Of a stretch of 32,000 bases of DNA, positions 2,721-29,999 are shown piece by piece. Position 1 is the first letter of the stretch, and the number at the start of each line of letters is the position of its first letter. Origin of the DNA: Acinetobacter oleivorans DR1 (GTDB lineage Bacteria > Pseudomonadota > Gammaproteobacteria > Pseudomonadales > Moraxellaceae); NCBI RefSeq assembly GCF_000196795.1, contig NC_014259.1, positions 4,027,178 through 4,059,177 of the forward strand, written 5' to 3'. The notes under the pieces are model-generated. The model did not search any database. It was given only the letters and a program-made list of their open reading frames with translations, and was not told the origin of the DNA. Both the position numbers and the translations under genes were made by a program.

Positions 2721-3593
2721 TTATTGCACATAAGGCCAAATATCTGGGTCTATATAGCTCTCATCTATATGGTAACCCTCTTTTTTCATATTATTTTCTT
2801 CAGTTTTACGTGCTTTCTTATTATTGGCAACTTCAGTTTCAAATGCTTGCTTTAACTGCTCTGAATTCATCTTATCTGTATCAGATATAGCATTTCGCCC
2901 TGCATATTTAAAGTTCTCAAAGCTATACCTCACCATATACTGTTCTTTTTTATCATCTTTATAGGTCTGTCGAAGACTAATACCTAATTCCACATCCCCA
3001 TTATACAAATTAAATACCAACCTATTTGTTTTCGAAAGAACATCCTGCCATTCTTTAAAACTTAAGATATAAGTTGGATCTATAACCTCACCCATGGTTT
3101 CATTCATATGCTTTAAATTATCTTGTTTATCAATTCGAGCACTAAAAGGTAAAAAATACTGCTTCCATTGTTTGTCATTTATCTGATGCACTAATTTAGT
3201 ATAAGCAGTATAGGCTTCTTGGCTCGTGGTATATTCATTTGGATGTAAGCTGGCATTAATGTCCATGATTTGAATACCATCATTGCTTCGTCGAGCTACT
3301 TGTGTACCTAGCACACTGATCACATTTTCTATTTCTAAATTACTCTTTTCACTAAATACACGTACTCGACCTAGTTTTGGTGGAGTCCAATCTAATGATA
3401 AAAAATTCATCCCTGCAGGCTGACGATCAACTGGCGTAGTACTATTTTTAGTAAAATCCTGCATGCCTTGTTTACCAAAATGAAGGGCTATTACATCTTG
3501 ATTTTGGTTCTTTAAACTAATACTTGTTGGTTTACATGCAATTAAAAATAGGCATGTAAAGATGCAGATAAATAAAGATAAATAGTTCTTCAT
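2721..3593 (-). CDS. Lipoprotein of unknown function; last gene of the vgrG island
   Basis: Signal peptide plus lipobox (LFLIAC at the N-terminus). AT-rich like the rest of the island. K/E-rich C-terminal tail. I recognise no family. Confidence 0.6.
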   Translation of the reverse strand: MKNYLSLFICIFTCLFLIACKPTSISLKNQNQDVIALHFGKQGMQDFTKNSTTPVDRQPAGMNFLSLDWTPPKLGRVRVFSEKSNLEIENVISVLGTQVARRSNDGIQIMDINASLHPNEYTTSQEAYTAYTKLVHQINDKQWKQYFLPFSARIDKQDNLKHMNETMGEVIDPTYILSFKEWQDVLSKTNRLVFNLYNGDVELGISLRQTYKDDKKEQYMVRYSFENFKYAGRNAISDTDKMNSEQLKQAFETEVANNKKARKTEENNMKKEGYHIDESYIDPDIWPYVQ

Positions 3594-3612: not shown

Positions 3613-3831
3613 CTAGCAACAAGTCTTCCCCTTATTACTACTCGAATATATTTTAAAATCGGCTTTACTATTTCCCCATTTAGAAATGGTTTTCAATTGC
3701 TGATTATATACCTTTCCTACATAGGCTACTGGAAGCCTTTCAGGCTCAATTGTATATTCTCGACCCCACCCTGTCATAACTAACAATGGCACACTCAAAT
3801 TTATTAATTTAAGTTTCAGATTTTTAAATAA
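3613..3831 (-). pseudogene. Decayed or truncated fourth copy of the Ig-like lipoprotein (immunity-type) family
   Basis: REYTIEPERLPVAYVGKVYNQQLKTIS aligns with KDYNIEPNKLPIAHIGKEYNQTLKITG of the 5440..5802 gene. The lipobox Cys position reads Trp (VMTGWG; a TGG codon where the paralogs have Cys). There is no ATG at the paralogous start position. The frame ends after about 60 homologous residues, against 113-120 in the intact copies. Confidence 0.6.
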
Positions 3832-3832
3832 A

Positions 3833-4243
3833 TTATTTTTCTTCCCATACAATGGGAAATTTTTCTGATTTAGAGACATTACCAATCATTGCAGAGAAAA
3901 TGGCTTGGCATTCTAAATTGATTTTTTTAACTGAACTGATATCTATAGGCTCACAGCTTCTATTATCATTATTTGAGCAGAATTCTACAGATACATCAAT
4001 TTGGTTATTCTCAAATCTATCGATATCCGCATCTAATGTTTGCTGAGGATCAATCATATTTTCACAAATTAACTTTTTTGATGATGATTTTTTTATTTTA
4101 TTTAAAACTTCCTTACCTTCAATTTTTATAGAAAAATTTAATTTTTCATTGCTTTTCATAATATGATCTATTGTGAAATTTGAAATTCTTTCACTACATC
4201 CAGTTAAAAAAATTAGCCCTGATAGGTAAAGAATTTTTTTCAT
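3833..4243 (-). CDS. Four-Cys lipoprotein (paralog B), unknown function, possible orphan immunity protein
   Basis: Lipobox LTGC. The mature part shares a Cys framework with the 4252..4740 product (C ... C-x7-C-x14/15-C). Confidence 0.6.
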   Translation of the reverse strand: MKKILYLSGLIFLTGCSERISNFTIDHIMKSNEKLNFSIKIEGKEVLNKIKKSSSKKLICENMIDPQQTLDADIDRFENNQIDVSVEFCSNNDNRSCEPIDISSVKKINLECQAIFSAMIGNVSKSEKFPIVWEEK

Positions 4244-4251
4244 TTAAAACT

Positions 4252-4740
4252 CTATTGGAAATTGGATTTTCTTATAGCTTCTTTTGATATTAAAATATTA
4301 TCTGCTATAACTTTACTACTTTGTAATAAGCTTCCAAAAACTACTCTACAAGACATATTGCTAGTTAACAATTTTTCCAATTGATTCTTATCGATACATA
4401 CATTCATGGATTCATCTTCGCAGACTTTGAAGTACCCAGATGAAGTATATTTTCCATTTTTTAACTTCTCTCCCTCGACTGAGATAGCTCCTGTCACAAA
4501 GTAATTTTTAATATTATTGCACTTAAAATGTGAATATTTATAATTATTCTCTTGATAAATCTTATTTAAATCATCATTTGTTTCTAAATTAAATTTAAAA
4601 ATATCACCACTCATACCATCCATATAAGAATAAGTTAAATTCTTAAGGGCTATATCCTTAAAATTTTCTTTCTCATTTTTGGCTAAAGGATTACAACCTG
4701 ACAATAAAATGGATAAAATAATTAAAAAATATTTATGCAT
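4252..4740 (-). CDS. Four-Cys lipoprotein (paralog A), unknown function, possible orphan immunity protein
   Basis: Lipobox LSGC. VCEDESMNVC...SCRVVFGS aligns with FCSNNDNRSC...ECQAIFSA of the 3833..4243 product. Confidence 0.6.
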   Translation of the reverse strand: MHKYFLIILSILLSGCNPLAKNEKENFKDIALKNLTYSYMDGMSGDIFKFNLETNDDLNKIYQENNYKYSHFKCNNIKNYFVTGAISVEGEKLKNGKYTSSGYFKVCEDESMNVCIDKNQLEKLLTSNMSCRVVFGSLLQSSKVIADNILISKEAIRKSNFQ

Positions 4741-4744
4741 CTAT

Positions 4745-5086
4745 TCATTCTACAATAATTAATTTATATTTCTTATTTAGCTCATCACTACCACGGCCAT
4801 AAAACCCTGTTGAAATATTTATTGTATATTCACCTTTATGTTTGGGAATACCTTTAATTGAAAAGTCATTAAAACCGCTAGTGTCATTGTTCGGTTGAAT
4901 TTTTAATCCTAAATCATCAGGCATATCAGTATCTATTTCAAAATACTTATCCACTACTTTGCCACCACTAATTTTTATATTCTGGGAATATGCTTCATTG
5001 ACATGAGCTACAGCGAGTTCCTTTGGTTGTACATCATAGTTGCTACAACCATTAAGGGTCATTGCCAATAGAATATATCGAAACAT
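4745..5086 (-). CDS. Ig-like single-domain lipoprotein, tandem paralog 3 (candidate T6SS immunity protein)
   Basis: Lipobox LNGC. The pattern LAVAHVNEAYSQNIKISGG...IKGIPKHKGEYTINI matches the bacterial putative-Ig (He_PIG-like) signature LP.a.vG..Y.q.l...GG ... sG.P...G.y.i.v. Confidence 0.65.
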   Translation of the reverse strand: MFRYILLAMTLNGCSNYDVQPKELAVAHVNEAYSQNIKISGGKVVDKYFEIDTDMPDDLGLKIQPNNDTSGFNDFSIKGIPKHKGEYTINISTGFYGRGSDELNKKYKLIIVE

Positions 5087-5092
5087 GTCTTT

Positions 5093-5434
5093 TTATTCTT
5101 TAACTACAAATTCATAGGTTTTATTTAACTTATCATCACCTCGCCCATAAAAATGTGCATTAATTATAATTTCATATTTCCCTTTATATTTTGGAATTCC
5201 ATCAATTCTTAAATGATTGTATCCATCTATATCATCTACAGGAGTAATTTTAATCTCCTGATTCTCTGGGATATTAGAAGTTAATTCAAAATGTTGTTCA
5301 GAGACTTTTCCACCTGTAATTTTTATATTCTGGGAATATGACTTATTAACATAAGCTACAGCGAGTTCCTTTGGTTGTGCATCATAGTTGCTACAACCAC
5401 TTAGTATTAACCCTAATAAGATATATCTAAACAT
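5093..5434 (-). CDS. Ig-like single-domain lipoprotein, tandem paralog 2 (candidate T6SS immunity protein)
   Basis: Lipobox LSGC. By manual count, 35 of the first 45 residues are identical to paralog 3. The two copies are offset by 348 bp and share long identical nucleotide runs, for example GCTACAGCGAGTTCCTTTGGTTGT. Confidence 0.65.
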   Translation of the reverse strand: MFRYILLGLILSGCSNYDAQPKELAVAYVNKSYSQNIKITGGKVSEQHFELTSNIPENQEIKITPVDDIDGYNHLRIDGIPKYKGKYEIIINAHFYGRGDDKLNKTYEFVVKE

Positions 5435-5439
5435 ATATC

Positions 5440-5802
5440 TTATTCTTTAACTACAAACTCATAGGTCTTATCCAACTCCCCATCACCACCAGCATAAAAA
5501 CTGGCATATATATTAATAGTAAAAGTTCCCTTATGTTTTGGAACTCCAGAAATTTTTAAATTATTATAAGCATCCGCTTCATTTTGATCTATTGGCTCAA
5601 TAGAGATATTCATATCACTTGGAAAATTATCTTTTACTTCAAAAGACTGTGGTATCACTCTTCCACCAGTAATTTTTAATGTCTGATTATATTCTTTGCC
5701 AATATGTGCTATCGGAAGCTTATTTGGTTCAATATTATAATCCTTACTACAGCCACAAAGACTCAAACTTAAAAATATTACAGCCAATTTATTAAATTTC
5801 AT
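5440..5802 (-). CDS. Ig-like single-domain lipoprotein, tandem paralog 1 (most likely cognate immunity protein)
   Basis: Lipobox LCGC. Same Ig-like pattern as the other paralogs. Its ATG overlaps the effector stop by one base (TAATG at 5800..5804), which suggests translational coupling. Confidence 0.65.
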   Translation of the reverse strand: MKFNKLAVIFLSLSLCGCSKDYNIEPNKLPIAHIGKEYNQTLKITGGRVIPQSFEVKDNFPSDMNISIEPIDQNEADAYNNLKISGVPKHKGTFTINIYASFYAGGDGELDKTYEFVVKE

Positions 5803-7046
5803 TAGAAAGACTCCCTTTTTACTATTAATGCAAAAAAAACTGCTTTTTCAAAATCATATAGAGACAAATTCGGTTTTAATTGTTGTTTATTCTCTCCCCA
5901 AGAAAAGGCTTGTAATTGAACTTCCGTCTTATATGGATCTGTTGTATTTGTTATAGGCTGACCATTACTCTGTCTTAATTTGTCAGTCCAAACAATCCAA
6001 TGATCTGGAAAACTTTGCGTGCCTGAACTAGAACCACTACTTAATAAGCTCGCAGAAATTAAACTAACTACATAGTAACCAGTTCCAGCATACTGGTTCA
6101 GTTCATTAATTAAACTAGGGTTATAACCATTAATATAAAATGGAAAAGTTTGTATCCCAAGAAATCCACTTTTTTTAAACCAATTTATTAGCTCTCCCCA
6201 TAGTGTAATACCTGCAACTTCTTGATTAGGATCTTTTAACCGTAGTGCAATATTTTCTGATTCTCGTAAACTAGCTAAAGTTATCCAATCAATTGGTGGA
6301 ATTTTAGGAGTTCCATTTTTTCTATAATAATTTTTTACTCGACGACATCCATCTAAAGTTGCCTCTATATTTAAATCTCCAATCCTTGTCTTTCCTGTTT
6401 CCCATAATTGTTTAACTGCAAACTTATATTTAGTCGGACTTAAATTGATAAGACAGAAGAAATAAGCTGCTGGGCCACACAAAGAAGCGTCAAATTGGTC
6501 AGGTAGAGGTTCGTTCAAACGAGCTTGTAAACCAGCTTCAATTTGAAGTTTTGAAAATGGGTCTTTCGCTTCCCCAGGCTTACAGCCAGGATCTATACAT
6601 TGAAAAACTCTATCTCTGCTCAAATTGAGCTGGAATGTATTTTTAGACTTAACCTCTTTAACAACCTTAGTCATGTAAGTTGCTTCGTTATACTTTACTT
6701 TAGATATCTTAGTGTTTTGGCTAAAATTTGCTGAAGGATAAGACTCAATCTTATCTGGCAAAATATAATTACTTAATACTAAAGCTTCTTTCCCACTGAT
6801 ACTCAATCGATATAAGTCAAAAAGAATTACACAGTCTCTTATATTTTCAATACCTAACTTACTACCATCTATCTCGGCAGATCTTGTTTGATAAAGATTA
6901 TTTCCTACTTTTTTGAATTCCTTACTTGTAAAAAGTATCGAAGTTTCTGCCTTATTTTTTACGGTATTGTAAACGTACAATCTATACTTTAATAAGCTAG
7001 GTTTTACATTTGTTTCCAAAACAACATACGGATAATACTTTGCCAT
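5802..7046 (-). CDS. VgrG-linked cargo protein: putative T6SS effector with a C-terminal papain/C39-like Cys-His domain
   Basis: The gene starts 8 nt after the vgrG stop. It has no signal peptide. The motifs are Q184-x5-C190-G (QFDASLCGPAAYFFCL), H349 (PDHWIVW) and D370-P. Confidence 0.6.
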   Translation of the reverse strand: MAKYYPYVVLETNVKPSLLKYRLYVYNTVKNKAETSILFTSKEFKKVGNNLYQTRSAEIDGSKLGIENIRDCVILFDLYRLSISGKEALVLSNYILPDKIESYPSANFSQNTKISKVKYNEATYMTKVVKEVKSKNTFQLNLSRDRVFQCIDPGCKPGEAKDPFSKLQIEAGLQARLNEPLPDQFDASLCGPAAYFFCLINLSPTKYKFAVKQLWETGKTRIGDLNIEATLDGCRRVKNYYRKNGTPKIPPIDWITLASLRESENIALRLKDPNQEVAGITLWGELINWFKKSGFLGIQTFPFYINGYNPSLINELNQYAGTGYYVVSLISASLLSSGSSSGTQSFPDHWIVWTDKLRQSNGQPITNTTDPYKTEVQLQAFSWGENKQQLKPNLSLYDFEKAVFFALIVKRESF

Positions 7047-7054
7047 TATTATTT

Positions 7055-9835
7055 TTACTCTATATCAATTTTTTCATCTTTAAATAAATGAAGTGATATC
7101 TCTTCTGGTTGGTAGGATTTAAATAGATCTGTATATCCTTTATCATCCGTACAACCTTCTACAATATCCCCATTAGGTAAGAAAGCGATATATTTATGAT
7201 TTGCAAAGTTATTGCCATCTTTATCTTGCAAAAAATATCTCAAGTTATATTTATTAATTTCGCCTAATACTGGCAATGCAGGAACATTAGCATTCGTACT
7301 CCCGCCCCCCATAAACAAATGCTGCCCAGCTTTTACCTCAAACTTACCACCTGTGGTCATAAAAATGCCCGAACCAGTAATTTTGACTTGAGAGCCGCCT
7401 GCGGTGAGTACAATTTCTTTGGCTGCGGTCGCTTCGATTTTGTCTTCAGTAGAAATCACCTGAACAGCTTTACGGGCAATTAAATCTGCTCCATCGCCTT
7501 GTGCTTGTATCTCAACTTTACCTTTGCCTGCATAGAGTCTTGCCCCTTCTTGCGCTGAAAAAAGGCTAATTTTATTTTGAGCATGTGCAATCAAGTTCTT
7601 TTGTGTAGACAGATTAATGCTGTCTCCAGCAGTTTGGTTTATCTGGCCATCTGCGCTTAAGTGAATGTCTTCGTTACTGCTCAGCGCGATGCTATTTGGG
7701 CTCGCTAACAACATAATCGCCTCTTTAAAGGTTTTGGCTTTTGCGTTGTCTTGCTGCTCAAGTTTTTCAATAAAGGATTTTAGGTTTTCTAAATTTTCTA
7801 AAGGGTCAGTTTGCTGATTTTTAGCAACTTCACTGAGTGCTTTGGCATTGTTAAGGCCACCGTCGATTTGTTGTTTGGCCTCATTTGCATCAAGGTGTAC
7901 ACCTTGAGCTTGATCCTGCTTGTGAGTACTAACAAGTAGCCCACTGCCCGCACGTACCGCGCCCCACTGGTCTGTTCTAAGTTCGAAGCCTTCACCACGA
8001 CCATCGCTTTCCGCCTTGTCTTTTGGATGGCTTAAGTTACCCAAGTTTAGTTGGCTTGCCGCATGACTGCTTTGTAGCTGGGCACTGATTTGCCCTGTGG
8101 TGTCATCAAAGCGTAGCTGGTTAAAGCCTTTACCGTCGACTTCTTCTGAGCGAATGCCGCTGAGCTTTTTGGTGTCGGGTAGCTGGCCTTTCTGGTCGAA
8201 CTGGGTTGGGTGACGTTCGGCTTCGTGAATGCGGCCGACCACAAACGGGCGGTCAATATTGCCGTCAAAGAAGTCGATCACCACAATCTCCCCCACACGT
8301 GGCAAGAAGCGCGCGCCATAACCCGCGCCTGCCCACGGGGTCAGCACATCTACCCAAGCCGAGTCAGTGTCATTGTCGTTACTGCCCGCTCCACCGTCAT
8401 GATTATGGTCGTCAGTTCGGGTAAACAAGAAGCGGACTTTAATGCGGCCCCACTGGTCAACGTGGATGCTTTCGCCTTCTAGCCCCACCACTCTAGCACG
8501 CTGCGGGTAAGCGGCCGGTCGGTGTTCTAGTGGGCTATATTCAGGCACAGCTTTAATGTTGCGTCGAACCACATTGAGTTCAGCAAAGTGGCGTTGTTCT
8601 GGGTTTTGGCTATCGAGTTGAGCTGCTTTGAGCTTGTCTTTTGGCAACAGACGCTCAAGTTGCTGTTGTAATTCTTTCGGTAAATTATTCTGGTTATAGT
8701 AGTGCTTGCTTAAGATTAAGAATTCTTTATCGGCACTGTCGTGTTGGTCGAGTTCTGGATGGTCATTGAGCTCAAACCAGTAACCTACTTGTGCATCACG
8801 GACGTTACCTGAAACCGTAAACTGTTTCGAACTTAGGTGATGATAAGCATTGATGTGCTGGTTAAGCTGTTCAATCTGGCTATTACCTGAAGCTGTGGCT
8901 TGGTCTTCGCCGTTTAAGTCTTGCATCCAAGCGGGGCTGACATGCCATGCATCTTCAAGGTTTAGGCTGGCATTGTCATAGTGTTCGCTGTGTTGCTGCT
9001 TACCTTGTACGCTGCCACTGCCTTCTTCTTGTTGTAGGGCATCGGCTTGCCAGCGTTGCACATGAACCGAGGTTGGCTGTAAACGGCGCTCTGCCTTGAC
9101 TTGGATAATGGTGTCGAACTGTTCTGTCGCACTGCTGCGCTGGTAACGTAGGCTATGGCGTTCAAGGGCTTGATAATTTTGGTTATCGTCAATTAAACGT
9201 AGCACTTGTGGTTGAATGGAAGCATTCGGGTCAGCGACCAAAAGTTGCGATTCATCGACCAGCCAGTTGATGCCCTCGCTACGCCACAAACGGGTTAAAA
9301 AGTCATAATCGCTTTCGTTTGACTGCATCACAAATGGGCGCACATCGTAGTCTTTAGTTAAGCCTGCTGTGTCGAGCGTCAGACTTGAGGCAAATAACGG
9401 GCTTTTGCCTTGCCATTCTTTAAACAGAATTTCGCTAATATCACGCACGCTTTTGTTCATAAACACGCGGCTATTACGACGTTTATGCCAAAGTGCAGTT
9501 GGATCTTTTAAGGTTAAGTTATAAATGGTGAGTGAGCCGTCGCTTTGGCCTTGGCTCGCTTCGGTAATAATACCTGTTGTTCTAAAAAACTGGCCTGCAT
9601 CCGTCACCTGATCGACAGCAACCTGACAGCCAATAAATTGTTTTAATGCAATATGCGCGTTTGTCGACAGACACAGTAACTCAGCAACGCTACCTTGGTT
9701 GAGGGTATGTTCACCCTCAATGCGTTGCAAGAAAACTTGCTGATTTAAAGACTGATTTGAGAATTGGATATGAACAGCGCGATTTTGTGAAACAAGGCCT
9801 AAACGCTCCAATATACTCGACACACTCATCTGCAT
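7055..9835 (-). CDS. vgrG: Type VI secretion spike protein VgrG
   Basis: A product of about 926-930 aa with a gp27/gp5-like core (WAGAGYGARFLPRVGEIVVIDFFDGNIDRPFVVGRIH) and a repetitive beta-helix C-terminal half. The start is ambiguous among TTG 9847, ATG 9835 and ATG 9829. Confidence 0.9.
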   Translation of the reverse strand: MQMSVSSILERLGLVSQNRAVHIQFSNQSLNQQVFLQRIEGEHTLNQGSVAELLCLSTNAHIALKQFIGCQVAVDQVTDAGQFFRTTGIITEASQGQSDGSLTIYNLTLKDPTALWHKRRNSRVFMNKSVRDISEILFKEWQGKSPLFASSLTLDTAGLTKDYDVRPFVMQSNESDYDFLTRLWRSEGINWLVDESQLLVADPNASIQPQVLRLIDDNQNYQALERHSLRYQRSSATEQFDTIIQVKAERRLQPTSVHVQRWQADALQQEEGSGSVQGKQQHSEHYDNASLNLEDAWHVSPAWMQDLNGEDQATASGNSQIEQLNQHINAYHHLSSKQFTVSGNVRDAQVGYWFELNDHPELDQHDSADKEFLILSKHYYNQNNLPKELQQQLERLLPKDKLKAAQLDSQNPEQRHFAELNVVRRNIKAVPEYSPLEHRPAAYPQRARVVGLEGESIHVDQWGRIKVRFLFTRTDDHNHDGGAGSNDNDTDSAWVDVLTPWAGAGYGARFLPRVGEIVVIDFFDGNIDRPFVVGRIHEAERHPTQFDQKGQLPDTKKLSGIRSEEVDGKGFNQLRFDDTTGQISAQLQSSHAASQLNLGNLSHPKDKAESDGRGEGFELRTDQWGAVRAGSGLLVSTHKQDQAQGVHLDANEAKQQIDGGLNNAKALSEVAKNQQTDPLENLENLKSFIEKLEQQDNAKAKTFKEAIMLLASPNSIALSSNEDIHLSADGQINQTAGDSINLSTQKNLIAHAQNKISLFSAQEGARLYAGKGKVEIQAQGDGADLIARKAVQVISTEDKIEATAAKEIVLTAGGSQVKITGSGIFMTTGGKFEVKAGQHLFMGGGSTNANVPALPVLGEINKYNLRYFLQDKDGNNFANHKYIAFLPNGDIVEGCTDDKGYTDLFKSYQPEEISLHLFKDEKIDIE

Positions 9836-10096
9836 TTTTATTATCAATCAAACTTATATTTAGGCCGCATTTTAATTAAAAAAAGACTAATCTGTCTATC
9901 TATACTCATTTTCAAAATGTAACTAGTCTAAATATGCAGTTTTAGGTTAATTTCTTATTAGATAGGTATTTAATCCGTAAAATTTACTCATTTTAAAGTG
10001 CTATAAACCACCCAAAAATATTTAATATTTTTCTTTTATATTCAAATAGATATTAAATAAATCAACTACTCAAATTAATAAAATTCAGGATGAGAT

Positions 10097-10789
10097 ATGA
10101 AAATAAAAAAGTCTGCTTTTTATATATTTACGGTGATTTTTTCACTTCATTCTCCTGCATTTGCTGAACCGAGTGTGGCCGATATTCAATATCGTGCAGA
10201 ACAAGGGCAAGCTGTTGCTCAATATCATTTAGGGATGATGCTTTTAAGCGGCGAACAAGGTGTGGTTAAAAATTATGAACAAGCGTTTAAATGGTTAACC
10301 GCGGCTGACCAAAATGGAAGCGTGGGGGCAAAATATAGTTTAGGAATGCTGTATTACACAGGTACGGGCGTCGAAAAAGATCCCAAGCGCGCTTTTGATT
10401 ATTTCACCAAAGCTGCGGCCAAGGGCCATGCTAAAGCCCAATATAACTTAGGGGTTTTATACGACAGAGGCGAAGGAACTGCACAAAATTATGTGCAAGC
10501 GTTTGAGTGGTTCAGTCGTGCTGCCAACCAAGGCTACCCACCCGCAGAATATAATTTAGCTCATCTATATAAAAAAGGTCACGGCGTTTCACAAAGTGAT
10601 GAGCAAGCCCTTAAGTGGTACACAAAAGCGGCCGAGCACAATGAAAGCGATGCTCAGTACAACTTGGCCCAGATGTATTTAAATGGTGAAGGCACGCCGA
10701 AAAACCTACAACTGGCAAAGAAATGGTTTCAGCAAGCTGCCGATGCAGGCGATGTAGATGCGAAAGAAATGCTTAAAAGTTTAGAATAA
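10097..10789 (+). CDS. Secreted Sel1-like (SLR/TPR-like) repeat protein
   Basis: Signal peptide (IFSLHSPAFA-EP) followed by at least five repeats of the form AQYxLGxxYxxGxGxxxNxxxAxxWxxKAA. Confidence 0.85.
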   Translation: MKIKKSAFYIFTVIFSLHSPAFAEPSVADIQYRAEQGQAVAQYHLGMMLLSGEQGVVKNYEQAFKWLTAADQNGSVGAKYSLGMLYYTGTGVEKDPKRAFDYFTKAAAKGHAKAQYNLGVLYDRGEGTAQNYVQAFEWFSRAANQGYPPAEYNLAHLYKKGHGVSQSDEQALKWYTKAAEHNESDAQYNLAQMYLNGEGTPKNLQLAKKWFQQAADAGDVDAKEMLKSLE

Positions 10790-15425: not shown

Positions 15426-18032
15426 TCAAGCCACTTGGCTTTCTAAAAAGTCTTGTGCAAAACGCTGTAATACACCGCCCGCTTCATATACAGAAACTTC
15501 TTCTTCTGTATCTAAACGGCAAGTCACTGGCACTTCAAGAATCTCTTCTTTACCATCCGCTGTGGCACGTTCAATCACTAAGGTTAAAGTCGAACGTGGC
15601 GCAATATTACCAATCACACTATAAAGCTCAGTACCATCTAGTTTTAAAGTCTTGCGGTTTACACCCGGTTTAAACTCAAGCGGTAACACACCCATACCTA
15701 CTAAGTTGGTACGGTGAATACGCTCAAAACCTTCTGCCACAATCGCTTCAACACCTGCAAGGCGCACACCTTTTGCAGCCCAGTCACGGCTTGAACCCTG
15801 ACCGTAGTCAGCACCCGCAACAATAATTAATGGCTGTTTACGGTTCATGTAGGTTTCAATCGCTTCCCACATACGCATCACTTCGCCTTCTGGCTCTACA
15901 CGCGCTTTTGAACCTTGCTTAATGGTACCGTCTGAGCGCACTACCATTTCGTTATACAGTTTCGGGTTGGCAAATGTTGCACGTTGTGCAGTCAAATGGT
16001 CGCCACGGTGCGTTGCATATGAGTTGAAGTCTTCTTCTGGTAAGCCCATTTTGTGAAGGTATTCACCCGCAGCCGAGTCCATCAAAATCGCGTTTGAAGG
16101 CGACAAGTGGTCGGTGGTGATGTTGTCACCCAAAATCGCAAGTGGACGCATGTTCGCCAAAGTACGTGGTGCAGCCAACGCCCCTTCCCAATATGGTGGA
16201 CGGCGGATGTAAGTACTTTGTGGACGCCAGTCGTAAAGTGGACTTTCAGCTTCTTCCGTTACACCTAAGTCAAACATTGGAATGTAGACTTTACGGAACT
16301 GTTCAGGCTTCACAGCTTCTTTAACTAACGCATCAATTTCAGCATCAGATGGCCAAATGTCTTTGAGGTAAATCGGTTTACCGTCTTTGTCATGACCTAA
16401 AGCATCTTTTTCAATATCAAAACGAATCGTACCCGCAATTGCATACGCCACGACAAGCGGTGGAGATGCCAAGAATGCTTGTTTTGCATATGGATGGATA
16501 CGGCCATCGAAGTTACGGTTACCAGAGAGTACTGCTGTTGCGTACAAGTCACGGTCAATAATTTCTTGTTGAATAACTGGATCTAACGCGCCTGACATAC
16601 CATTACAGGTCGTACAAGCGTAAGCCACAATACCAAAACCAAGTTGCTCTAAGTCTTTTAGAACACCTGCTTCTTCAAGGTAAAGTGCAGCCGCTTTTGA
16701 ACCCGGTGCAAATGATGATTTCACCCAAGGTTTACGAACCAAACCAAGTTCATTTGCCTTACGTGCCAACAAACCTGCCGCCACGGTGTTACGTGGGTTA
16801 GAAGTGTTAGTACATGAAGTGATTGCAGCAATAATGATTGCGCCATCTGGCATTAAGCCGTCAGAACGGTTTTCGACAACACCCGCAATACCTTTTTCTT
16901 TTAGGTCCGCAGTTGAAACACGTGCATGTGGGTTTGATGGACCAGCGATGTTACGTGTCACTTTTGATAGGTCAAAACGAAGTACACGTGGGTACTCTGC
17001 TTTGGTCATGTCAGATGCCCAAAGACCGATTTCTTTTGCGTACTGTTCAACCAATGCCACTTGAGCATCTTCACGGCCTGTTAGGCGTAAGTAATCGATT
17101 GTGTTTTGGTCGATGTAGAACATCGCAGCAGTAGCACCATACTCTGGTGTCATGTTCGAAATGGTTGCACGGTCGCCCACAGACATGCTGTCTGCACCTT
17201 CACCAAAGAACTCAAGGTAAGCACCAACCACACGCTCTTTACGCAAGAACTCGGTTAAAGCAAGTACGATATCTGTTGCAGTAATGCCTGCCTGACGCTG
17301 ACCTACAAACTCAACGCCAATAATGTCTGGCAAACGCATCCAAGATGCACGGCCTAACATTACGTTTTCAGCTTCTAAACCACCTACACCCACAGAAATT
17401 ACGCCCAAAGCGTCTGTATGTGGTGTGTGTGAGTCTGTACCGACACATGTGTCTGGGAATGCTACGCCATCACGCGCCTGAATCACCGGAGACATTTTCT
17501 CTAGGTTAATCTGGTGCATAATGCCGTTCCCCGCAGGGATCACATCGACATTTTTAAATGCTGTTTTAGTCCACTCAATAAAGTGAAAACGGTCTTCGTT
17601 ACGGCGGTCTTCAACAGCACGGTTTTTTGCAAAAGCGTCTGGGTCAGCACCACCGTATTCCACCGCTAAAGAGTGGTCGACAATGAGCTGTGTCGGTACA
17701 ACTGGGTTAACTTTAGATGGGTCGCCGCCTTTGTCAGCAATCGCATCACGTAAGCCTGCAAGGTCAACCAATGCAGTTTGACCCAAAATGTCATGACACA
17801 CCACACGCGCTGGGTACCAAGGAAAGTCCAAGTCCTGACGGCGTTCAATCAACTGCGTTAAATAGGCAGTTAAGTTCTCGGCATCGGCACGGCGTACCAA
17901 TTGCTCTGCGAGTACTTTAGACGTGTAAGGCAGTTTTTCGTATGCGCCTGGCTGAATATCTTCAACGGCTTGACGCACGTCGTAATATTCAAGCTGGGTA
18001 CCTGCCAGCGGTTTACGGTATTTTGTGTTCAT
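15426..18032 (-). CDS. acnD: Fe/S-dependent 2-methylcitrate dehydratase, aconitase family (AcnD type)
   Basis: 868 aa. The N-terminus [48 protein letters not shown] is AcnD-like as I recall it. Aconitase cluster-ligand regions are present (TDSHT, CTTCNG). Its ATG overlaps the prpC stop (TAATG). Confidence 0.85.
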   Translation of the reverse strand: MNTKYRKPLAGTQLEYYDVRQAVEDIQPGAYEKLPYTSKVLAEQLVRRADAENLTAYLTQLIERRQDLDFPWYPARVVCHDILGQTALVDLAGLRDAIADKGGDPSKVNPVVPTQLIVDHSLAVEYGGADPDAFAKNRAVEDRRNEDRFHFIEWTKTAFKNVDVIPAGNGIMHQINLEKMSPVIQARDGVAFPDTCVGTDSHTPHTDALGVISVGVGGLEAENVMLGRASWMRLPDIIGVEFVGQRQAGITATDIVLALTEFLRKERVVGAYLEFFGEGADSMSVGDRATISNMTPEYGATAAMFYIDQNTIDYLRLTGREDAQVALVEQYAKEIGLWASDMTKAEYPRVLRFDLSKVTRNIAGPSNPHARVSTADLKEKGIAGVVENRSDGLMPDGAIIIAAITSCTNTSNPRNTVAAGLLARKANELGLVRKPWVKSSFAPGSKAAALYLEEAGVLKDLEQLGFGIVAYACTTCNGMSGALDPVIQQEIIDRDLYATAVLSGNRNFDGRIHPYAKQAFLASPPLVVAYAIAGTIRFDIEKDALGHDKDGKPIYLKDIWPSDAEIDALVKEAVKPEQFRKVYIPMFDLGVTEEAESPLYDWRPQSTYIRRPPYWEGALAAPRTLANMRPLAILGDNITTDHLSPSNAILMDSAAGEYLHKMGLPEEDFNSYATHRGDHLTAQRATFANPKLYNEMVVRSDGTIKQGSKARVEPEGEVMRMWEAIETYMNRKQPLIIVAGADYGQGSSRDWAAKGVRLAGVEAIVAEGFERIHRTNLVGMGVLPLEFKPGVNRKTLKLDGTELYSVIGNIAPRSTLTLVIERATADGKEEILEVPVTCRLDTEEEVSVYEAGGVLQRFAQDFLESQVA

Positions 18033-19189
18033 TAACCACGCTCCGCCAATGGTTTAAATTCGAGGTTTTCAGGGCCTGTGTAGTTCGCGCTTGGACGAAT
18101 AATTTTGCCGTCTTGGCGTTGTTCAATCACGTGCGCTGACCAGCCTGCTGTACGTGCAATCACGAACAATGGTGTGAACATTGCAGTTGGAACACCCATT
18201 AAGTGATAGCTCACTGCACTGAACCAATCGAGGTTCGGGAACATGTTTTTCACTTCTTTCATCACTGCTTCTAAACGTTCAGCGATGAGGTACATTTTGG
18301 TATTCTCTTGTGCTTGTGCTAAGTCATGCGCCACTTTCTTAATTACTTCGTTACGTGGGTCAGAAACTGTATATACAGGATGACCAAAACCAATTACGAC
18401 TTCTTTATTTTCAACACGCTTACGAATGTCAGCTTCTGCTTCATCTGCGTTGTCATAACGTTGTTGAATTACGAATGCAACTTCGTTTGCACCTCCATGC
18501 TTAGGTCCGCGAAGCGCACCAATACCACCTGTAATTGCCGAGTACATGTCAGAACCTGTACCTGCAACCACACGTGAGGTAAATGTAGACGCGTTGAACT
18601 CGTGCTCAGCATACAAAATAAGAGATGTATGCATTGCTTGAATCCATTCTTCAGATGGTTTTTCGCCATGAAGTAAATGTAAGAAATGTGCTGCAATTGA
18701 GTCGTCATCAGTTTCAACTTCAATACGACGACCGTTATTGCTGAAGTGGTACCAATAAAGCAGCATTGAGCCTAGGCTTGCCATTAATTTATCAGCAATG
18801 TCTTTTGCGCCAGCTTCGTTATGGTCTTCGTGTTCTGGCGTTAAGCAACCTAACACTGATACACCTGTACGCATCACATCCATTGGGTGTGCAGACGGTG
18901 GTAATTGCTCAAGTGCAGTTTTAAGTGCTGCTGGTAAGCCACGAAGTGCTTTTAATTTTGCTTTATACGCTTTGAGTTCAGCTTTGTTTGGTAATTTGCC
19001 ATGTACAAGCAAGTGAGCAACTTCTTCAAACTGGCTACCCGCCGCAAGGTCAAGAATGTCATAGCCACGATAGTGCAAGTCGTTACCACTACGTCCTACG
19101 GTACACAGTGCTGTGTTGCCTGCAACTTGTCCGCTAAGTGCAACTGATTTTTTTGGTTTGAAGCCTGTTGTTGTTTCATTTGAGCTCAT
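18032..19189 (-). CDS. prpC: 2-methylcitrate synthase
   Basis: Citrate-synthase family ([16 protein letters not shown] motifs), positioned between prpB and acnD. Confidence 0.9.
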
Positions 19190-19255
19190 AAGAATGTCCT
19201 TTCCTATCTATTTAAATTATTTGGGGAACACGGCATATGTACCGTGTTTTACTTC

Positions 19256-20140
19256 TTATTTCTTTTTAGCAAATGCGTTGTCTAAGTAGTCTTCAAACGC
19301 ATAGTAGTTAATGCGTTCATATAACTCTTTACGCGTTTGCATAATATCAACCACGTTCTTTTGCGTGCCTTCTTTACGCAAGGTTTCATACACAGTTTCG
19401 GCTGCTTTGTTCATGGCACGGAAAGCAGAAAGCGGATAAAGCGCAAGGCTTACATCGGCAGATGCTAACTCTTCAGTCGTAAATAGTGGTGTAGAACCAA
19501 ACTCGGTAATGTTTGCCAAAATTGGTGCGCCTGTCTTCTGAGCAAATTGCTTGTACATATCAAGCTCGGTAATTGCTTCAGGGAACAACATGTCTGCGCC
19601 CGCTTCGATGTAGGCACCCGCACGGTCAATTGCAGCTTGTAAGCCATCTACGGCCAATGCATCAGTACGTGCCATAATCACGAAGCTGTCATCACCACGT
19701 GCATCGACCGCAGCTTTAATACGGTCAACCATTTCTTCTTGAGTCACAATGGCTTTGTTCGGACGGTGTCCACAACGTTTTGCGCCCACTTGGTCTTCAA
19801 TGTGCATTGCCGCAGCACCAAACTTGATAAGTGCTTTTGTAGTACGAGCAATGTTAAATGCAGAAGCGCCAAAACCTGTGTCCGCATCGACTAATAATGG
19901 AAGATCACATACATCGGTAATACGGCGTACGTCTGTCAACACATCATCAAGGTTACTGATTCCTAAATCAGGTAAGCCTAAAGAACCAGCGGCTACACCA
20001 CCACCTGATAAGTAAATCGCTTTATAACCTGCACGTTTTGCCAAAAGTGCATGATTGGCGTTAATGGTTCCAACCACTTGTAATGGCTTTTCTTGGGCTA
20101 CTGCATCGCGAAATAGCTGACCTGCGGATTGTTTAGCCAT
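19256..20140 (-). CDS. prpB: 2-methylisocitrate lyase
   Basis: PEP-mutase/isocitrate-lyase superfamily (KRCGH motif). I place the start at ATG 20140 ([10 protein letters not shown]), which has AAGGAG 9 nt upstream. The track ORF extends spuriously to 20254 inside the regulator gene. Confidence 0.9.
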
Positions 20141-20843
20141 TGTTATGTTCTCCTTGTGCTTGTAGCAGTGTTTGCTCAATAATTTTGTAAGAAGCATTGA
20201 TATGTCGATGCATGAGCAGCTCGGCAAGTTCACCATCACCTTCTGCAATTGCATCTAAAATACGGATGTGTTCGTCCCAAGCTTTGCTCGGACGATCGGG
20301 TGTGTTTGAAAACTGAATTCGGTACATACGGATGAGGTGATAAAGCTCATCGCATAGCATTTTTTCTAGGGTTTTATTGCCACTACTTTTGATAATGCAG
20401 TAGTGAAAATCGTCCTGCCCTTCTTGCAAGTAATATCCTTTACCTGCTTTAAAGTTTTCATCTTCGGCATGCATACGCAAAACATCACGTAATGCCAAGA
20501 TTTGCTTTTTATCAATATGCTGTGCCGCAAGTTTGCAAGCCAAACCCTCTAAAGACGCACGAATCTGATAAAGCTCTTTAAACTGTTGCAAGGATAATGA
20601 AACCACGCGCGCGCCCACATGTGCAGTACGCTCAACCAAACGCTGCCCTTCAAGGCGATGAATCGCTTCACGTAAAGGCCCACGACTAATGCCATAAGTA
20701 CGTGCTAGCTCAGGCTCAGAAATCTTGCTACCTGCCGGAATTTGACCCAAAACAATCGCCGTCTGTATTTGTTTAAATACATTCTCGGTCAGTGTTCTTC
20801 CCTGACTTTGTAATGGCTCTGGTGCGAAGGTCAAATCTTGCAT
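20133..20843 (-). CDS. GntR/FadR-family transcriptional regulator of the prp operon
   Basis: N-terminal winged HTH ([29 protein letters not shown]) and an all-helical FCD-like C-terminal domain. The stop overlaps the prpB start by 8 nt. Confidence 0.85.
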
Positions 20844-22620: not shown

Positions 22621-24327
22621 TTAAGATTTAGCCTTGCCCCAATATTTCAGTTTTGAGGTATGTCCAATACCTACGTTAAAGCTATTGGTTGGGTCAAGTT
22701 TTTGATAAAAGTTAGCTAAGGCAGGCTTGGCAATGTAAAGATGCCCAACATTATGCTCTGCCGGATATTCAGCACGGCGCGCATCGAGTAACTTCCACAT
22801 TTGATGTTCCATTTCTAAAGGGTCATGGCCCTTTTTAAGAATATAGTCTTGATGGAACACATGACAAAAGAAATGCCCATAATAGAGTTTATGGATGATT
22901 TTATTTTCCATTTCGGCAGGCAGTTGCTCTACCCACTCACGGTCATTACGACGTAACGCAATATCAAGCGCCACAATATCTTCAACTTCACTACGGTGCG
23001 TATCACGATAACGAATTGCAGCTCCTGCAATCGCAAAACGGTGTAAGAACGCTTTTCGGCCTTCCCCTTCGCTACATACGAAATAGCTACCTGACTGATG
23101 CACTGCAAAATATTCTTTTAAAAACTGCTCGGTCTGAGCTTTTGAATTATTTTCGACACGTAGCACTAAATGGTGCTCATAACGATCTCGATATTCGGTC
23201 ATACGCTTAGGCAAATGACTCGGTAAAAAGAAGGTAATCGCCTGTAAAATCTGATCCGTTAAACCTTTAATTTTAAATCTTTCTAAGAAACCATCGACTT
23301 TATCTTTCATCGCAAAAGCTTTGGGAACATTGGCTGTGCCAAATTTTTCAATAAATAAGAACGTGTCTTTTCCGTACTTTTCACCAATCAAGTAAGCATC
23401 TCGGTGAATATATTCACCAGCGATTGGTAGGCTTGGCAGTGAGGTTAGTAAGTAACGGCGAATAGCGGTTAAATCATCGGCATCATTAGTACCAATATAA
23501 AAGACATTACTTTCTACTTTTTCATAAGTATCAAGACGTACCGCAAACACACAGACTTTACCTGCCGAACCCGATGCTTCAAACAATCGTGACGGGTCTG
23601 CATTAAAACGCGCGGGTGTATCTTCATCAACTTGCGTCACATCGTGCGCATAACGATAGTCCGATGCCTGCTTTTCGCCATCATCTAAAATATCTATGGC
23701 TTGATATTTCTGCTTCTCTAAACGCATCAAAATTTCTTCAGGAGTCGAGCCTAAATTCACCCCTAAATGGTTCACCAGCTCTAATTGACCAGCAGTATTC
23801 ACCTGAGCATATAACGCCAGCTCAGTATACGCAGGACCACGGCGTACCAACGCACCACCAGAGTTATTACACACACCGCCAAGTACCGATGCCCCAATAC
23901 AAGATGAACCAATTACTGAATGCGGTTCACGATCATAGCCTTTTAAAATTTGCTCTAAATTATCTAAGGTCGCACCCGGTAAACAAATCACTTGCTTACC
24001 ATCATGAATGACTTGTATGCCTTTTAAACGACGCGTACTCATCACTAAAACAGGACGATCATAATCATCACCATACGGGGTTGAACCGCCAGTGAGTCCT
24101 GTATTCGCCGCCTGCATAATCACAATACAGTCTGCATCAATTGCAGCTTGGAGTACCTGCCATTGCTCTAACAAGGTTCCTGGCACCACCACAGCAAGTA
24201 CTTTCCCCTCACCAAAACGACGACCTTGGCGATACTGACGCGTGCTTTGATCATCAGTCAAAACATGCGAACGCCCTACAATATTCTGTAAACGTTCGAT
24301 CACTACTTGAGGAGAAAATGTTTGCAT
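22621..24327 (-). CDS. dld: FAD-dependent respiratory D-lactate dehydrogenase
   Basis: About 570 aa with an FAD-binding N-terminal region. The N-terminus IVGRSHVLTDDQSTRQYRQGRRFGEG parallels E. coli Dld. The likely start is ATG 24327, with AAGGAA upstream; the track ORF starts at 24351. Confidence 0.85.
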   Translation of the reverse strand: MQTFSPQVVIERLQNIVGRSHVLTDDQSTRQYRQGRRFGEGKVLAVVVPGTLLEQWQVLQAAIDADCIVIMQAANTGLTGGSTPYGDDYDRPVLVMSTRRLKGIQVIHDGKQVICLPGATLDNLEQILKGYDREPHSVIGSSCIGASVLGGVCNNSGGALVRRGPAYTELALYAQVNTAGQLELVNHLGVNLGSTPEEILMRLEKQKYQAIDILDDGEKQASDYRYAHDVTQVDEDTPARFNADPSRLFEASGSAGKVCVFAVRLDTYEKVESNVFYIGTNDADDLTAIRRYLLTSLPSLPIAGEYIHRDAYLIGEKYGKDTFLFIEKFGTANVPKAFAMKDKVDGFLERFKIKGLTDQILQAITFFLPSHLPKRMTEYRDRYEHHLVLRVENNSKAQTEQFLKEYFAVHQSGSYFVCSEGEGRKAFLHRFAIAGAAIRYRDTHRSEVEDIVALDIALRRNDREWVEQLPAEMENKIIHKLYYGHFFCHVFHQDYILKKGHDPLEMEHQMWKLLDARRAEYPAEHNVGHLYIAKPALANFYQKLDPTNSFNVGIGHTSKLKYWGKAKS

Positions 24328-24452
24328 GATGGTTTCCTTTTGGTCATCCATTTATCAAATTAGACCAACACGATGGAGTCTTACCGTTTGTAATTTATAT
24401 TTAACTAGCTCATTCTCTAATTAGAATCAGCCCTATATTTACTATCGTGATT

Positions 24453-24542
24453 GGCGGCAGGGATGCCGCCGTTTCGATGCGGTAGCAAGGAAGTACCGTC
24501 ATCGAAACGAAGGTTTTTGGTTACTTTTGACCTTTCAAAAGT
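24453..24542. other. Three consecutive stable hairpins in the lldD-dld intercistronic spacer
   Basis: Hairpin 1: GGCGGCA-ggga-TGCCGCC (24453..24470). Hairpin 2: GTTTCGATG-CGGTA-gcaaggaag-TACCG-t-CATCGAAAC (24471..24508). Hairpin 3: ACTTTTGA-cctt-TCAAAAGT (24523..24542). Confidence 0.6.
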
Positions 24543-24622
24543 GACAAATGCCTACACTCAGAACTTTAGCAAATCACCAAATTTTGAGGCTGTGCTTATT
24601 GCCTCACTTAAAAACTTATTTC

Positions 24623-25774
24623 TTAAAAACCTTGCTTCATCGCCTGTACTAAACAATCCGCATTAATATCCGAAATCGACTTAGCACCCGTAAGCGTCAT
24701 CGCAACACGCATTTCTTTATCAATTAAATCAAGCAAGTTCGAGACCCCTTGCCCACCTGCTGCTGCCAAGGCATAAACAAATGCACGGCCAAGTAAAACC
24801 GTATCGGCACCGAGCGCCAACATACGCACCACATCTAAACCATTGCGGATGCCTGAGTCAGCCAAAATCGCCAAATCACCTTTCACTGCATCAGCAATTG
24901 CAGGCAATGCACGAGCAGATGACATCACACCATCTAACTGACGACCACCGTGATTCGAGACCACAATACCATCTGCACCAAAACGCACGGCATCTTTGGC
25001 ATCTTCAGGGTCTAAAATACCCTTAATTACCATTGGGCCATCCCAAAATTCACGAATCCACTCAAGGTCTTTCCATGAAATTGATGGGTCAAAGTTCGAG
25101 CCTAACCAACCAATATAGTCTTCAAGCCCAGTAGGCTTACCTAAATATTTAGAAATATTGCCCAAGTCGTGCGGACGGCCCATTAGGCCAACATTCCACG
25201 ACCAATGCGGATGGAACATTGACTGCATATAGCGGCGCATCGCAGCATTTGGCCCACTCATACCCGAATGGGCATCACGGTAACGTGCACCCGGCACAGG
25301 CATATCTACGGTAAATACCAATGTTGAACAACCTGCCGCTTTTGCACGTTCCAAAGCATTCCGCATAAAACCACGGTCACGTAATACATAAAGCTGGAAC
25401 CACATAGGGCGGTTAATTGCAGGTGCAACTTCTTCAATTGGACATACCGAAACCGTTGAAAGAGTAAATGGAATGCCCTTTTTGTCGGCTGCCATCGCTG
25501 CCTGCACTTCACCACGGCGCGCATACATACCTGTTAAGCCTACAGGTGCCAAAGCAACTGGCATAGACAAGGTTTCGTTAAACAGTTTGGTTTCAAGGCT
25601 TAACGCCGACATGTCATTGAGCACACGTTGACGCAATGCAATTTCTGACAAATCTTGTACGTTACGCTTTAAGGTATATTCCGAATACGCTCCACCATCA
25701 ATGTAATGAAATAAAAATGGAGGTAAGCGACGCTGTGCCGCAGCACGATAATCATTGCCAGAAGAAATAATCAT
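24623..25774 (-). CDS. lldD: FMN-dependent L-lactate dehydrogenase
   Basis: The whole length is nearly collinear with E. coli LldD as I recall it ([35 protein letters not shown]...). Confidence 0.95.
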
Positions 25775-26523: not shown

Positions 26524-26542
26524 CGCGTTTCCTTCACTGGAG

Positions 26543-28204: not shown

Positions 28205-28265
28205 TGTCATCTCCTTGAAATGCCGGGGCGAATTTTTGTACCTTAAATTCTTAAACATCTAACAC

Positions 28266-29954: not shown

Positions 29955-29967
29955 TAGAGTTCATCTC

Positions 29968-29999
29968 AAAGAGATGGAACATTATTGTTCCATCTCTTT
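29968..29999. terminator. Bidirectional terminator between pgm and pgt1
   Basis: A 14-bp stem, AAAGAGATGGAACA (29968..29981) paired with TGTTCCATCTCTTT (29986..29999), with loop TTAT and T/A runs on both sides. Confidence 0.8.

Follow-up and report, generated by a model that had tools for sequence, protein, structure and literature searches.

What is the gene that directly follows the vgrG spike gene in Acinetobacter oleivorans DR1, and what might its product do? In the 32,000-nt stretch of DNA that we analysed (NC_014259.1, positions 4,027,178 to 4,059,177 of the forward strand; hereafter the window, from whose first letter all coordinates are counted), this gene occupies 5802..7046 on the minus strand. 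Read from its ATG, it encodes a protein of 414 residues, identical to ADI92672.1 of A. oleivorans DR1, which is annotated as hypothetical. A previous sequence-only reading had picked it out as a candidate type VI secretion system (T6SS) effector. The answer that we favour, with somewhat better than even confidence, is that the protein is an antibacterial T6SS cargo effector of a new, unannotated cysteine-hydrolase family, which would act on cell-wall amide bonds in the periplasm of prey cells.

The gene order at this locus is compact. The effector ATG lies 8 nt (AAATAATA) beyond the TAA stop codon of vgrG (7055..9847, minus strand), and the effector's own TAA runs into the ATG that opens the following gene (TAATG), a Shine-Dalgarno motif (GGGAG) lying 8 nt upstream. 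That next gene, imm1 (5440..5802, minus strand), is the candidate for cognate immunity: it encodes a 120-residue lipoprotein with one putative He_PIG-type Ig-like domain, and its product is ADI92671.1 of the same strain, annotated as a lipoprotein. There is no open reading frame (ORF) between vgrG and the effector gene, and so no DUF4123, DUF2169 or DUF1795 adaptor at that place; a Pfam search found no PAAR match in the effector protein, whose N-terminus is not hydrophobic and bears no signal peptide. The earlier account of the gene (its coordinates, its length, the 8-nt gap, the TAATG coupling, and the lack of signal peptide, PAAR and adaptor) is thus upheld, with the strand now given as minus.

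We surveyed the context of effector homologues in one genome per species (79 loci). In 31/81 loci, drawn from Acinetobacter, Leclercia, Klebsiella, Serratia, Erwinia, Pantoea, Neisseria and Gilliamella, a tblastn search with the VgrG of the window gave a match immediately upstream of the effector homologue. Three further arrangements were encountered: a separate PAAR protein of 160-180 residues lies upstream in Psychrobacter, one Neisseriaceae genome, Pantoea agglomerans and the two plasmids examined (Yersinia/Serratia); an Hcp of 247-254 residues lies upstream in Xenorhabdus; and the catalytic domain carries a fused PAAR in relatives of the Pseudomonas/Stutzerimonas type and in the proteins P0215 and P0116. 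The family therefore behaves across relatives as T6SS cargo does, adjoining or being fused to vgrG, hcp or PAAR, and the spike-effector-immunity layout that had been read from the window alone recurs: dozens of loci have the effector-lipoprotein pair after a VgrG, PAAR or Hcp gene. We rejected the idea that a Klebsiella pneumoniae record (NZ_CP138705.1, 2724 bp; locus L082) is a colicin-like plasmid, there being no replicon typing for it and its effector gene being split. This record carries a frameshifted effector homologue and a lipoprotein gene, and it is probably an assembly fragment.

The lipoprotein gene is a near-constant partner. In nearly every locus with a complete effector ORF, the next gene is a lipobox ORF of 117-148 residues that usually overlaps the effector gene or begins within a few nucleotides of it; these small genes form a single family (A5), downstream in nearly all loci, that co-varies with the effector. 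Homologues of imm1 and of its two paralogues in the window (imm2 and imm3) come right after effector homologues in Acinetobacter, Xenorhabdus, Psychrobacter, Gilliamella, Serratia, Erwinia and the Yersinia/Serratia plasmids. In an alignment of 38 of these downstream lipoproteins the lipobox Cys is invariant; the Pfam He_PIG model (PF05345) matches 3/38 of them (best E 9.9e-9), imm1 itself giving no match. The paralogues, both on the minus strand, each encode 113 residues: imm2 (5093..5434) is 50% identical to imm1, imm3 (4745..5086) is 40% identical to it, and the three proteins, all with lipoboxes, are mutually 40-50% identical. A truncated fourth paralogue (3613..3885, minus strand) aligns with the N-terminal half of imm1-3, having lost both its lipobox and its C-terminal half. 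The closest copies of imm2 are found in other Acinetobacter loci, and imm3 shares 90% identity with the second of the immunity genes at locus L007. Because the immunity candidates are lipoproteins, the effector probably acts in the periplasm, as the sequence-only reading had reasonably supposed.

Within Acinetobacter, A. oleivorans falls into the T6SS-1A group (PMC6838775), and the window has the same layout as the VGN6 hotspot described by Repizo et al. (2019, PMC6838775): an anchor gene for a short-chain dehydrogenase/reductase (SDR)-type oxidoreductase, a VgrG of 920-948 residues and a Sel1-repeat neighbour. What differs is the cargo, which in the 27 VGN6 loci surveyed (mostly A. baumannii) was DUF3396 or ‘undetermined, putative lipase’, whereas the window holds a papain-like effector and a lipoprotein array. 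The Sel1-repeat gene of the window is at 10097-10789 (plus strand), divergent from vgrG; such genes are a recurrent partner of Acinetobacter vgrG islands (PMC6838775).

Our reading of the protein as a T6SS effector stems from its many-genus association with a neighbouring VgrG, PAAR or Hcp, the PAAR fusions and the lack of a signal peptide, together with the co-diversifying linked lipoprotein gene, the extra immunity paralogues, the VGN6 hotspot and a T6SS-1A species. That it is antibacterial cargo with a cognate periplasmic lipoprotein as its immunity is strongly supported, on evidence that is entirely comparative. The family is missing among the 32 that Lewis et al. (PMC6833914) distinguish for A. 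baumannii effectors, none of which is a 414-residue family, is not mentioned in a 2026 review of the Acinetobacter T6SS, and is not identifiable in the papers on Pantoea effectors (Pse). Keyword searches found no paper describing it; tables published as images were unreadable, so an un-named listing is possible.

What kind of enzyme might this be? A word-indexed search returned 67 homologues of the effector, all hypothetical and none with a Pfam domain: those of Acinetobacter species are 55-91% identical to it, and those of Xenorhabdus, Proteus, Providencia and Entomomonas 32-35%. Copies were also located by tblastn on plasmids of Yersinia pseudotuberculosis, Serratia, Edwardsiella, Moellerella and Pantoea. 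An exhaustive profile search reached much further, to 1408 clusters (representatives at 50% identity) at E <= 1e-3, with 905 remaining at <= 1e-10; the majority of these matches cover only profile positions ~160-400, the C-terminal domain, in proteins of 250-320 residues. For this catalytic domain (residues 145-414; 5805..6614) there was no Pfam, NCBIfam or PDB sequence match, whether the query was the effector, 82 relatives taken singly or the profile; Pumilio matches of relatives and profile were discarded as spurious. Pfam and NCBIfam yielded no NlpC_P60, CHAP or Tae family domain in the effector or its relatives.

We counted conservation over 98 sequences, in which distant members are ~23-32% identical to the effector. 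Four residues are invariant in 98/98: C190, G191, W254 and H349. Nearly so are W350 and W383 (97/98 each), G384 (96/98), and Q184 and R261 (95/98 each), while D253 is present in 96/98 and replaced by Glu in the other two. The sequence-only reading had assembled a catalytic signature from Q184, C190-G191, H349 and D370-P371, and a check of the codons places all six residues at those numbers. Its Q184-x5-C190 element (6477..6497) and H349 (6000..6002) have proved durable (95-98/98). The D370-P371 pair proposed as its third element has not: Asp is found at 370 in 11/36 close and 16/98 distant relatives, and Pro at 371 in 14/36 and 12/98, respectively. On these counts the conservation of Gln, Cys and His is beyond chance and the D370-P part of the signature is coincidental. 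Furthermore, the Cys-His interval, 159 residues in the effector, had been thought long enough to imply an insertion; it is ~150-160 residues throughout the family, and similar in calpain cores.

The predicted structure points in the same direction. An AlphaFold2 (AF2) model of the full-length protein (pLDDT 86, pTM 0.70) consists of an N-terminal beta-sandwich, a disordered linker and an alpha+beta C-terminal domain. A Foldseek search with this model was swamped by weak matches to the beta-sandwich, so we modelled the catalytic domain alone, from the 98 sequences, with higher scores (pLDDT 95.2, pTM 0.93). In both models C190 opens helix 190-202 and H349 opens strand 349-353; an F381-S-W383-G384 motif (5895..5906) lies on the strands that follow. 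Of the eight best PDB matches of the isolated domain, seven are clan-CA proteins: the calpain cores 1zcm (E 9e-3), 2p0r (TM score 0.43), 1kfu and 3bow, the Josephin-type BpJOS (9f5t), the papain-fold protein 2b1m, and AvrPphB (1ukf). The suggested likeness to C39 peptidases did not survive: the Pfam C39 model matched neither the effector at E <= 0.1 nor any of 82 relatives at E <= 0.01, and no ComA, LahT or Cpe1 structure is among the top 50 PDB fold matches. The fold check that the sequence-only reading had called for turned up papain-like neighbours, but remote ones.

The closest points of comparison are the calpain core (MEROPS C2) and papain (C1), the best structural matches. Papain has Q19-x5-C25, H159 and N175-S-W-G, with a Cys-His spacing of 134; in m-calpain the corresponding residues are Q99-x5-C105, H262 and N286-P-W-G, and the spacing is 157. 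The effector domain, as modelled, resembles them in its two-lobe alpha+beta organization, in its Cys at the N-terminus of a helix with a Gln at -6, in its His at the start of a strand ~150-160 residues on, and in the x-S/T-W-G strand that comes next. It differs from them in that no sequence similarity is detectable even by profile, TM scores are 0.35-0.43, an aromatic replaces Asn/Asp, an invariant Asp-Trp pair is found in the helical lobe, and there is no Ca2+-binding context; the effector is, moreover, bacterial, T6SS-linked and paired with a candidate lipoprotein inhibitor. Since residue conservation, the topology of the model and its fold neighbours taken as a set agree, a remote papain/calpain-like Cys-His enzyme, with C190 as predicted nucleophile, Q184 in the oxyanion hole and H349 as general base, is well supported.

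The third catalytic residue is the unusual part of this active site. We take F381-S-W383-G384 to be the equivalent of the papain/calpain N-x-W-G strand, which would put an aromatic residue at the catalytic Asn position. Position 381 is aromatic (F/Y/W) in 91/98 sequences, and with D370 poorly conserved, no canonical Asn/Asp was found after the His. Between Cys and His lies D253, which with W254 (6285..6290) belongs to the motif IDWITLASLRxSEN of the helical lobe; conservation makes it a possible substitute for the third residue or, alternatively, a substrate-binding residue. Papain-like folds can support deamidase, transglutaminase and acyl-transferase chemistries. An aromatic in place of the catalytic Asn would suit an acyl-enzyme or transfer reaction, and a ‘papain fold toxin 1, glutamine deamidase’ entry is among the equally weak papain-fold matches, the only ones obtained, in a fold search of the BFVD viral models. 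The domain might therefore be a deamidase, a transglutaminase or an acyl-transferase or lipid-directed enzyme of the prey envelope rather than a peptidase. We consider this doubtful: the oxyanion Gln is kept at papain/calpain spacing, no deamidase, transglutaminase or LRAT-type family was matched, and fold matches of that type have E > 0.2. The missing third residue could also be taken to mean that the protein is no toxin at all, being instead a decayed enzyme or a structural accessory or chaperone of VgrG. This we find most improbable, given that Q, C and H stay invariant across a divergence spanning ~1400 clusters, that the protein pairs with an immunity-like gene, that nine orphan effector-immunity modules sit away from spike genes, and that fusions in the style of PAAR toxins occur.

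Another key feature of the locus is the C-terminus of VgrG. The ORF matches Phage_GPD (2e-59), Phage_base_V, T6SS_Vgr, DUF2345 and TIGR03361 in Pfam and NCBIfam, and aligns over residues 494-916 with PDB 6sjl, which we take to be VgrG1 of the VgrG1-Tle1 complex of enteroaggregative Escherichia coli (EAEC), the PDB record saying only putative type VI secretion protein. Beyond these domains is a tail (residues ~850-930; 7055..7300) that contains a portable module of ~65 residues. The GC content is 47.4% in the vgrG core (7301-9847), 29.7% in the tail, 32.8% in the effector gene and 26-33% in the lipoprotein genes; the step falls at nt ~7260-7300, that is, at VgrG codon ~850-863, where DUF2345 ends. 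Its position suggests that DUF2345 ends at a recombination junction: because the GC content drops so sharply within vgrG itself, tail, effector and immunity array appear to be one low-GC cassette grafted onto the core of a spike gene, and the unit recurs in other genera behind VgrG, PAAR or Hcp.

An iterative search (jackhmmer) with VgrG residues 850-930 gave the module the consensus ...Y.lRY...D.dG.p..n..Y.a.l.dG....G.TD..GYT......e.i.ihl and placed it directly upstream of an effector homologue in 44/70 loci with usable upstream sequence. It is always the C-terminus of the upstream protein, be that VgrG, PAAR or Hcp: Hcp in Xenorhabdus; PAAR in Psychrobacter, Moraxella, Neisseriaceae and the Yersinia/Serratia plasmids. 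Some Acinetobacter loci (L006, L011 and L012) retain of vgrG only a 3' remnant, which bears the tail. Taken alone, the tail gives a weak match (E 0.015) to the region that precedes the effector domain of VgrG2b (6h56), and a transthyretin (TTR)-like fold is plausible for it. We consider the VgrG tail a candidate loading site for the effector. There are precedents in EAEC VgrG1-Tle1 (6sjl) and VgrG17-Tae17, where cargo encoded beside vgrG is loaded through direct contact with a C-terminal extension of VgrG and with no adaptor. Unlike these, the ~65-residue tail described here also terminates PAAR and Hcp proteins, always beside the effector family; no description of a tail common to VgrG, PAAR and Hcp was found in the literature searched.

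Two of these carriers may be noted in their own right. In Xenorhabdus, the Hcp of 247-254 residues has the tail as its C-terminal extension and is encoded directly upstream of the effector homologue (L017 5253-5996, L029 5232-5996, L047 5243-5995); an Hcp whose extension is adaptor-like, and not toxic, seems unusual. On plasmids, a PAAR-plus-tail ORF precedes the effector-immunity pair in p_153kb of Y. pseudotuberculosis IP31758 (L001 7462-7998), in whose record it is unannotated, just a 44-residue coding sequence being called, and in an IncI1 plasmid of Serratia (L002 7597-7998). It thus appears that spike tip, toxin and immunity are carried on conjugative plasmids as a self-contained module.

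What, then, would the tail hold? The AF2 model bears out an earlier suggestion that the effector has a separate N-terminal part: residues 1 to ~130 (6657..7046) form a beta-sandwich of ~125 residues, followed by a low-confidence linker (130-143), and this domain is plausibly used for docking. Its fold matches (Foldseek, full-length model against PDB) are weak, to C2-like and pilotin structures. N-domain and tail are both present in 37/70 loci and both absent in 17, among them the Helicobacter loci and the relatives of Pseudomonas type with fused PAAR; nine loci have the N-domain only, being orphan effector-immunity pairs with unrelated genes upstream, and seven have the tail without the N-domain. 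That the two mostly co-occur or are both absent fits docking of one on the other. In A. baumannii, the N-terminus of Tae17 binds the C-terminus of VgrG17 (PMC11796386). A profile search for the N-domain fused to other toxin domains, in the manner of a MIX/FIX/PIX-type delivery domain, gave fragments only.

From these elements we envisage the following sequence of events. The effector, having no signal peptide, would be loaded non-covalently on the spike through the low-GC tail of VgrG, most likely by contact with its own N-terminal beta-sandwich, and T6SS firing would bring it into a Gram-negative neighbour's periplasm. There its C-terminal domain would act as a cysteine hydrolase through C190, H349 and Q184, with F381 at the usual Asn position and D253 as a possible substitute. 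It might cut amide bonds of the cell-wall layer, in peptidoglycan stem peptides or cross-links or in peptidoglycan-tethered proteins, causing lysis or growth arrest; this is the least certain of the steps. The producer and its kin would be protected by imm1, predicted to be an outer-membrane-anchored periplasmic He_PIG lipoprotein that binds the effector, while imm2 and imm3 probably guard against divergent alleles of competitors.

Cell-wall amide bonds are our best guess as to the substrate, by analogy: we favour them because known periplasmic Cys-His toxins of the T6SS serve as a prior and because of a single OmpA fusion. The latter is the metagenomic relative P0194 (L083 196-1383), which has a C-terminal OmpA peptidoglycan-binding domain (E 5e-23) and no signal peptide; it comes from a single 1.6-kb metagenomic contig. 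As for the former, Tae1-4/Tse1 (NlpC/P60- or CHAP-like, with Tai immunity) exemplify the logic proposed here, namely a Cys-His enzyme, periplasmic delivery and an immunity gene directly downstream. On the other hand, Tae proteins are single domains of ~150 residues that Pfam recognises, whereas the effector has a catalytic domain of ~270 residues with Q, C and H in papain order and no CHAP, NlpC_P60 or Tae4 match; an additional N-terminal (putative loading) domain and a putative He_PIG lipoprotein as immunity candidate also set it apart.

These differences bear on a serious rival. Delivery and immunity could be just as proposed, with the enzyme being instead a true endoprotease in the style of calpain or papain, directed at a single protein, or a handful of them, in the prey's periplasm or outer membrane, such as envelope tethers, the Bam, Lpt or Lol machinery, or cell-wall synthases. 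This is a serious rival because its fold neighbours are protein proteases: the closest folds (calpain, papain-fold, Josephin, AvrPphB) cleave proteins and are not of the NlpC/P60 type, the CHAP lysin 5d74 is far down the Foldseek PDB list (rank 21, E 0.54), and the size of the domain, its Q-x5-C element and the lack of CHAP, NlpC_P60 and Tae4 matches are all unlike Tae amidases. Nevertheless, the fold matches are too weak for the substrate to be derived from them, and the literature searched holds no papain-like protease that acts in the periplasm among T6SS effectors. The nearest cases, the papain-like cysteine protease toxins Cpe1, EvpQ and TsaP, are likewise tied to VgrG, PAAR, Rhs or CdiA; they form a C39-like group of T6SS and contact-dependent inhibition (CDI) protease toxins, and Cpe1 cleaves the cytoplasmic topoisomerase subunits GyrB and ParE (PMC12136450). 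The OmpA fusion fits a peptidoglycan-proximal substrate, yet does not tell the two readings apart. We hold an envelope-protein endoprotease to be a minority possibility. A bolder version, which we rate as unlikely to a similar degree, would make the effector the founding representative, within the T6SS, of a large papain/calpain-like superfamily, still without a name, that combines a Cys-His dyad with an Asp in the helical lobe, acting as a periplasmic endoprotease of envelope proteins, with the tail as a universal plug for VgrG, PAAR and Hcp. Such an endoprotease would introduce a target class so far undescribed for T6SS toxins.

The wider superfamily raises a further alternative: action in the prey cytoplasm or on eukaryotic cells, the lipoproteins being unrelated genes of the island or involved indirectly. 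Distant relatives of the catalytic domain do lack lipoprotein neighbours, one PAAR fusion has no downstream immunity gene, and the relative P0136 (L089 239-3677) lies between an Anthrax_toxA-like (adenylate-cyclase toxin) gene and a weakly IcsB-like gene, so that some branches of the family may be host-directed effectors. For the effector of the window we think this reading improbable, since a lipoprotein gene sits directly downstream in nearly all of the ~70 loci, in at least a dozen genera, and co-diversifies with the effector, which is the signature of cognate immunity. Stand-alone catalytic-domain members at the far end of the superfamily include one after mutL, one alone after a TacA-like gene, and one (P0152) with a Sel1-repeat gene 24 nt upstream. 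Comparison across these contexts indicates that the domain is a general-purpose Cys-His enzyme module, of which the T6SS- and lipoprotein-linked clade is one branch.

Several observations weigh against a periplasmic cell-wall hydrolase delivered by the T6SS. Distant superfamily members have neither a lipoprotein neighbour nor T6SS context and, standing outside toxin-immunity settings, they imply that the domain is not intrinsically a periplasmic toxin. The catalytic domain has only weak fold matches (best E 9e-3, none <1e-3, TM scores 0.35-0.43), and the loss of the canonical third residue (F381) leaves room for non-hydrolytic chemistry. The assignment to peptidoglycan rests on the location of the immunity protein and on one OmpA fusion, and is the weakest link of the proposal. 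As for docking, the seven Psychrobacter/Moraxella loci have a PAAR-tail protein beside an effector of 277-288 residues without the N-domain, beginning at the equivalent of residue ~143 (for example L035, L042, L053, L071 and L033); a simple model in which the tail binds the N-domain is therefore in conflict with them, and the tail may bind something other than the N-domain, or not the N-domain alone. Finally, secretion, toxicity and immunity of the effector are all inferred from comparison of genomes.

In its general kind, a T6SS cargo effector-immunity pair, the locus is familiar. Beyond routine are the clan-CA-like family that existing models miss, with its non-canonical active site, and the putative loading tail common to VgrG, PAAR and Hcp carriers. 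If the favoured reading is right, a new enzyme family would be added to the T6SS toxins of the Acinetobacter calcoaceticus-baumannii complex, many Enterobacterales, Neisseria, Psychrobacter, Xenorhabdus and Pseudomonas, and the function of a widespread domain, one that neither Pfam nor NCBIfam models, would become approachable for the first time. With one cassette placed on VgrG, PAAR and Hcp, the system would be a clean one in which to ask how cargo specificity is encoded. Should the substrate be a component of the cell envelope, the enzyme and its lipoprotein inhibitor could reveal a new vulnerable bond of the Gram-negative envelope.

There remain the other genes of the window. The vgrG start was called mechanically at the TTG at 9847, which gives 930 residues; the presence of an ATG in the same frame at 9835 (MQMSVSS...) and the alignment of homologues from residue 5 suggest that the real start is 9835 and the protein probably 926 residues long. 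Downstream of the effector, three further minus-strand genes encode lipobox lipoproteins unrelated to imm1-3, of 162 (4252-4740), 136 (3833-4243) and 290 residues (2721-3593). The first two recur in loci L004 and L007, and the 136-residue protein has a weak NCBIfam match, below cut-off, to ‘putative T6SS immunity periplasmic lipoprotein’ (E 0.01); all three are probably orphan immunity genes that share this low-GC island. The vgrG island is flanked by housekeeping genes: prpB, prpC and acnD of the methylcitrate cycle with a GntR regulator at 15426-20843, lldP-lldR-lldD-dld for lactate utilisation at 22621-28258, and pgm with a sulfatase-family gene at 28584-31823. Because the flanking genes are of this kind, we regard the island as an orphan one, apart from the main T6SS cluster. 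The pair of pgm and the sulfatase-family gene resembles the edge of an Acinetobacter capsule locus.

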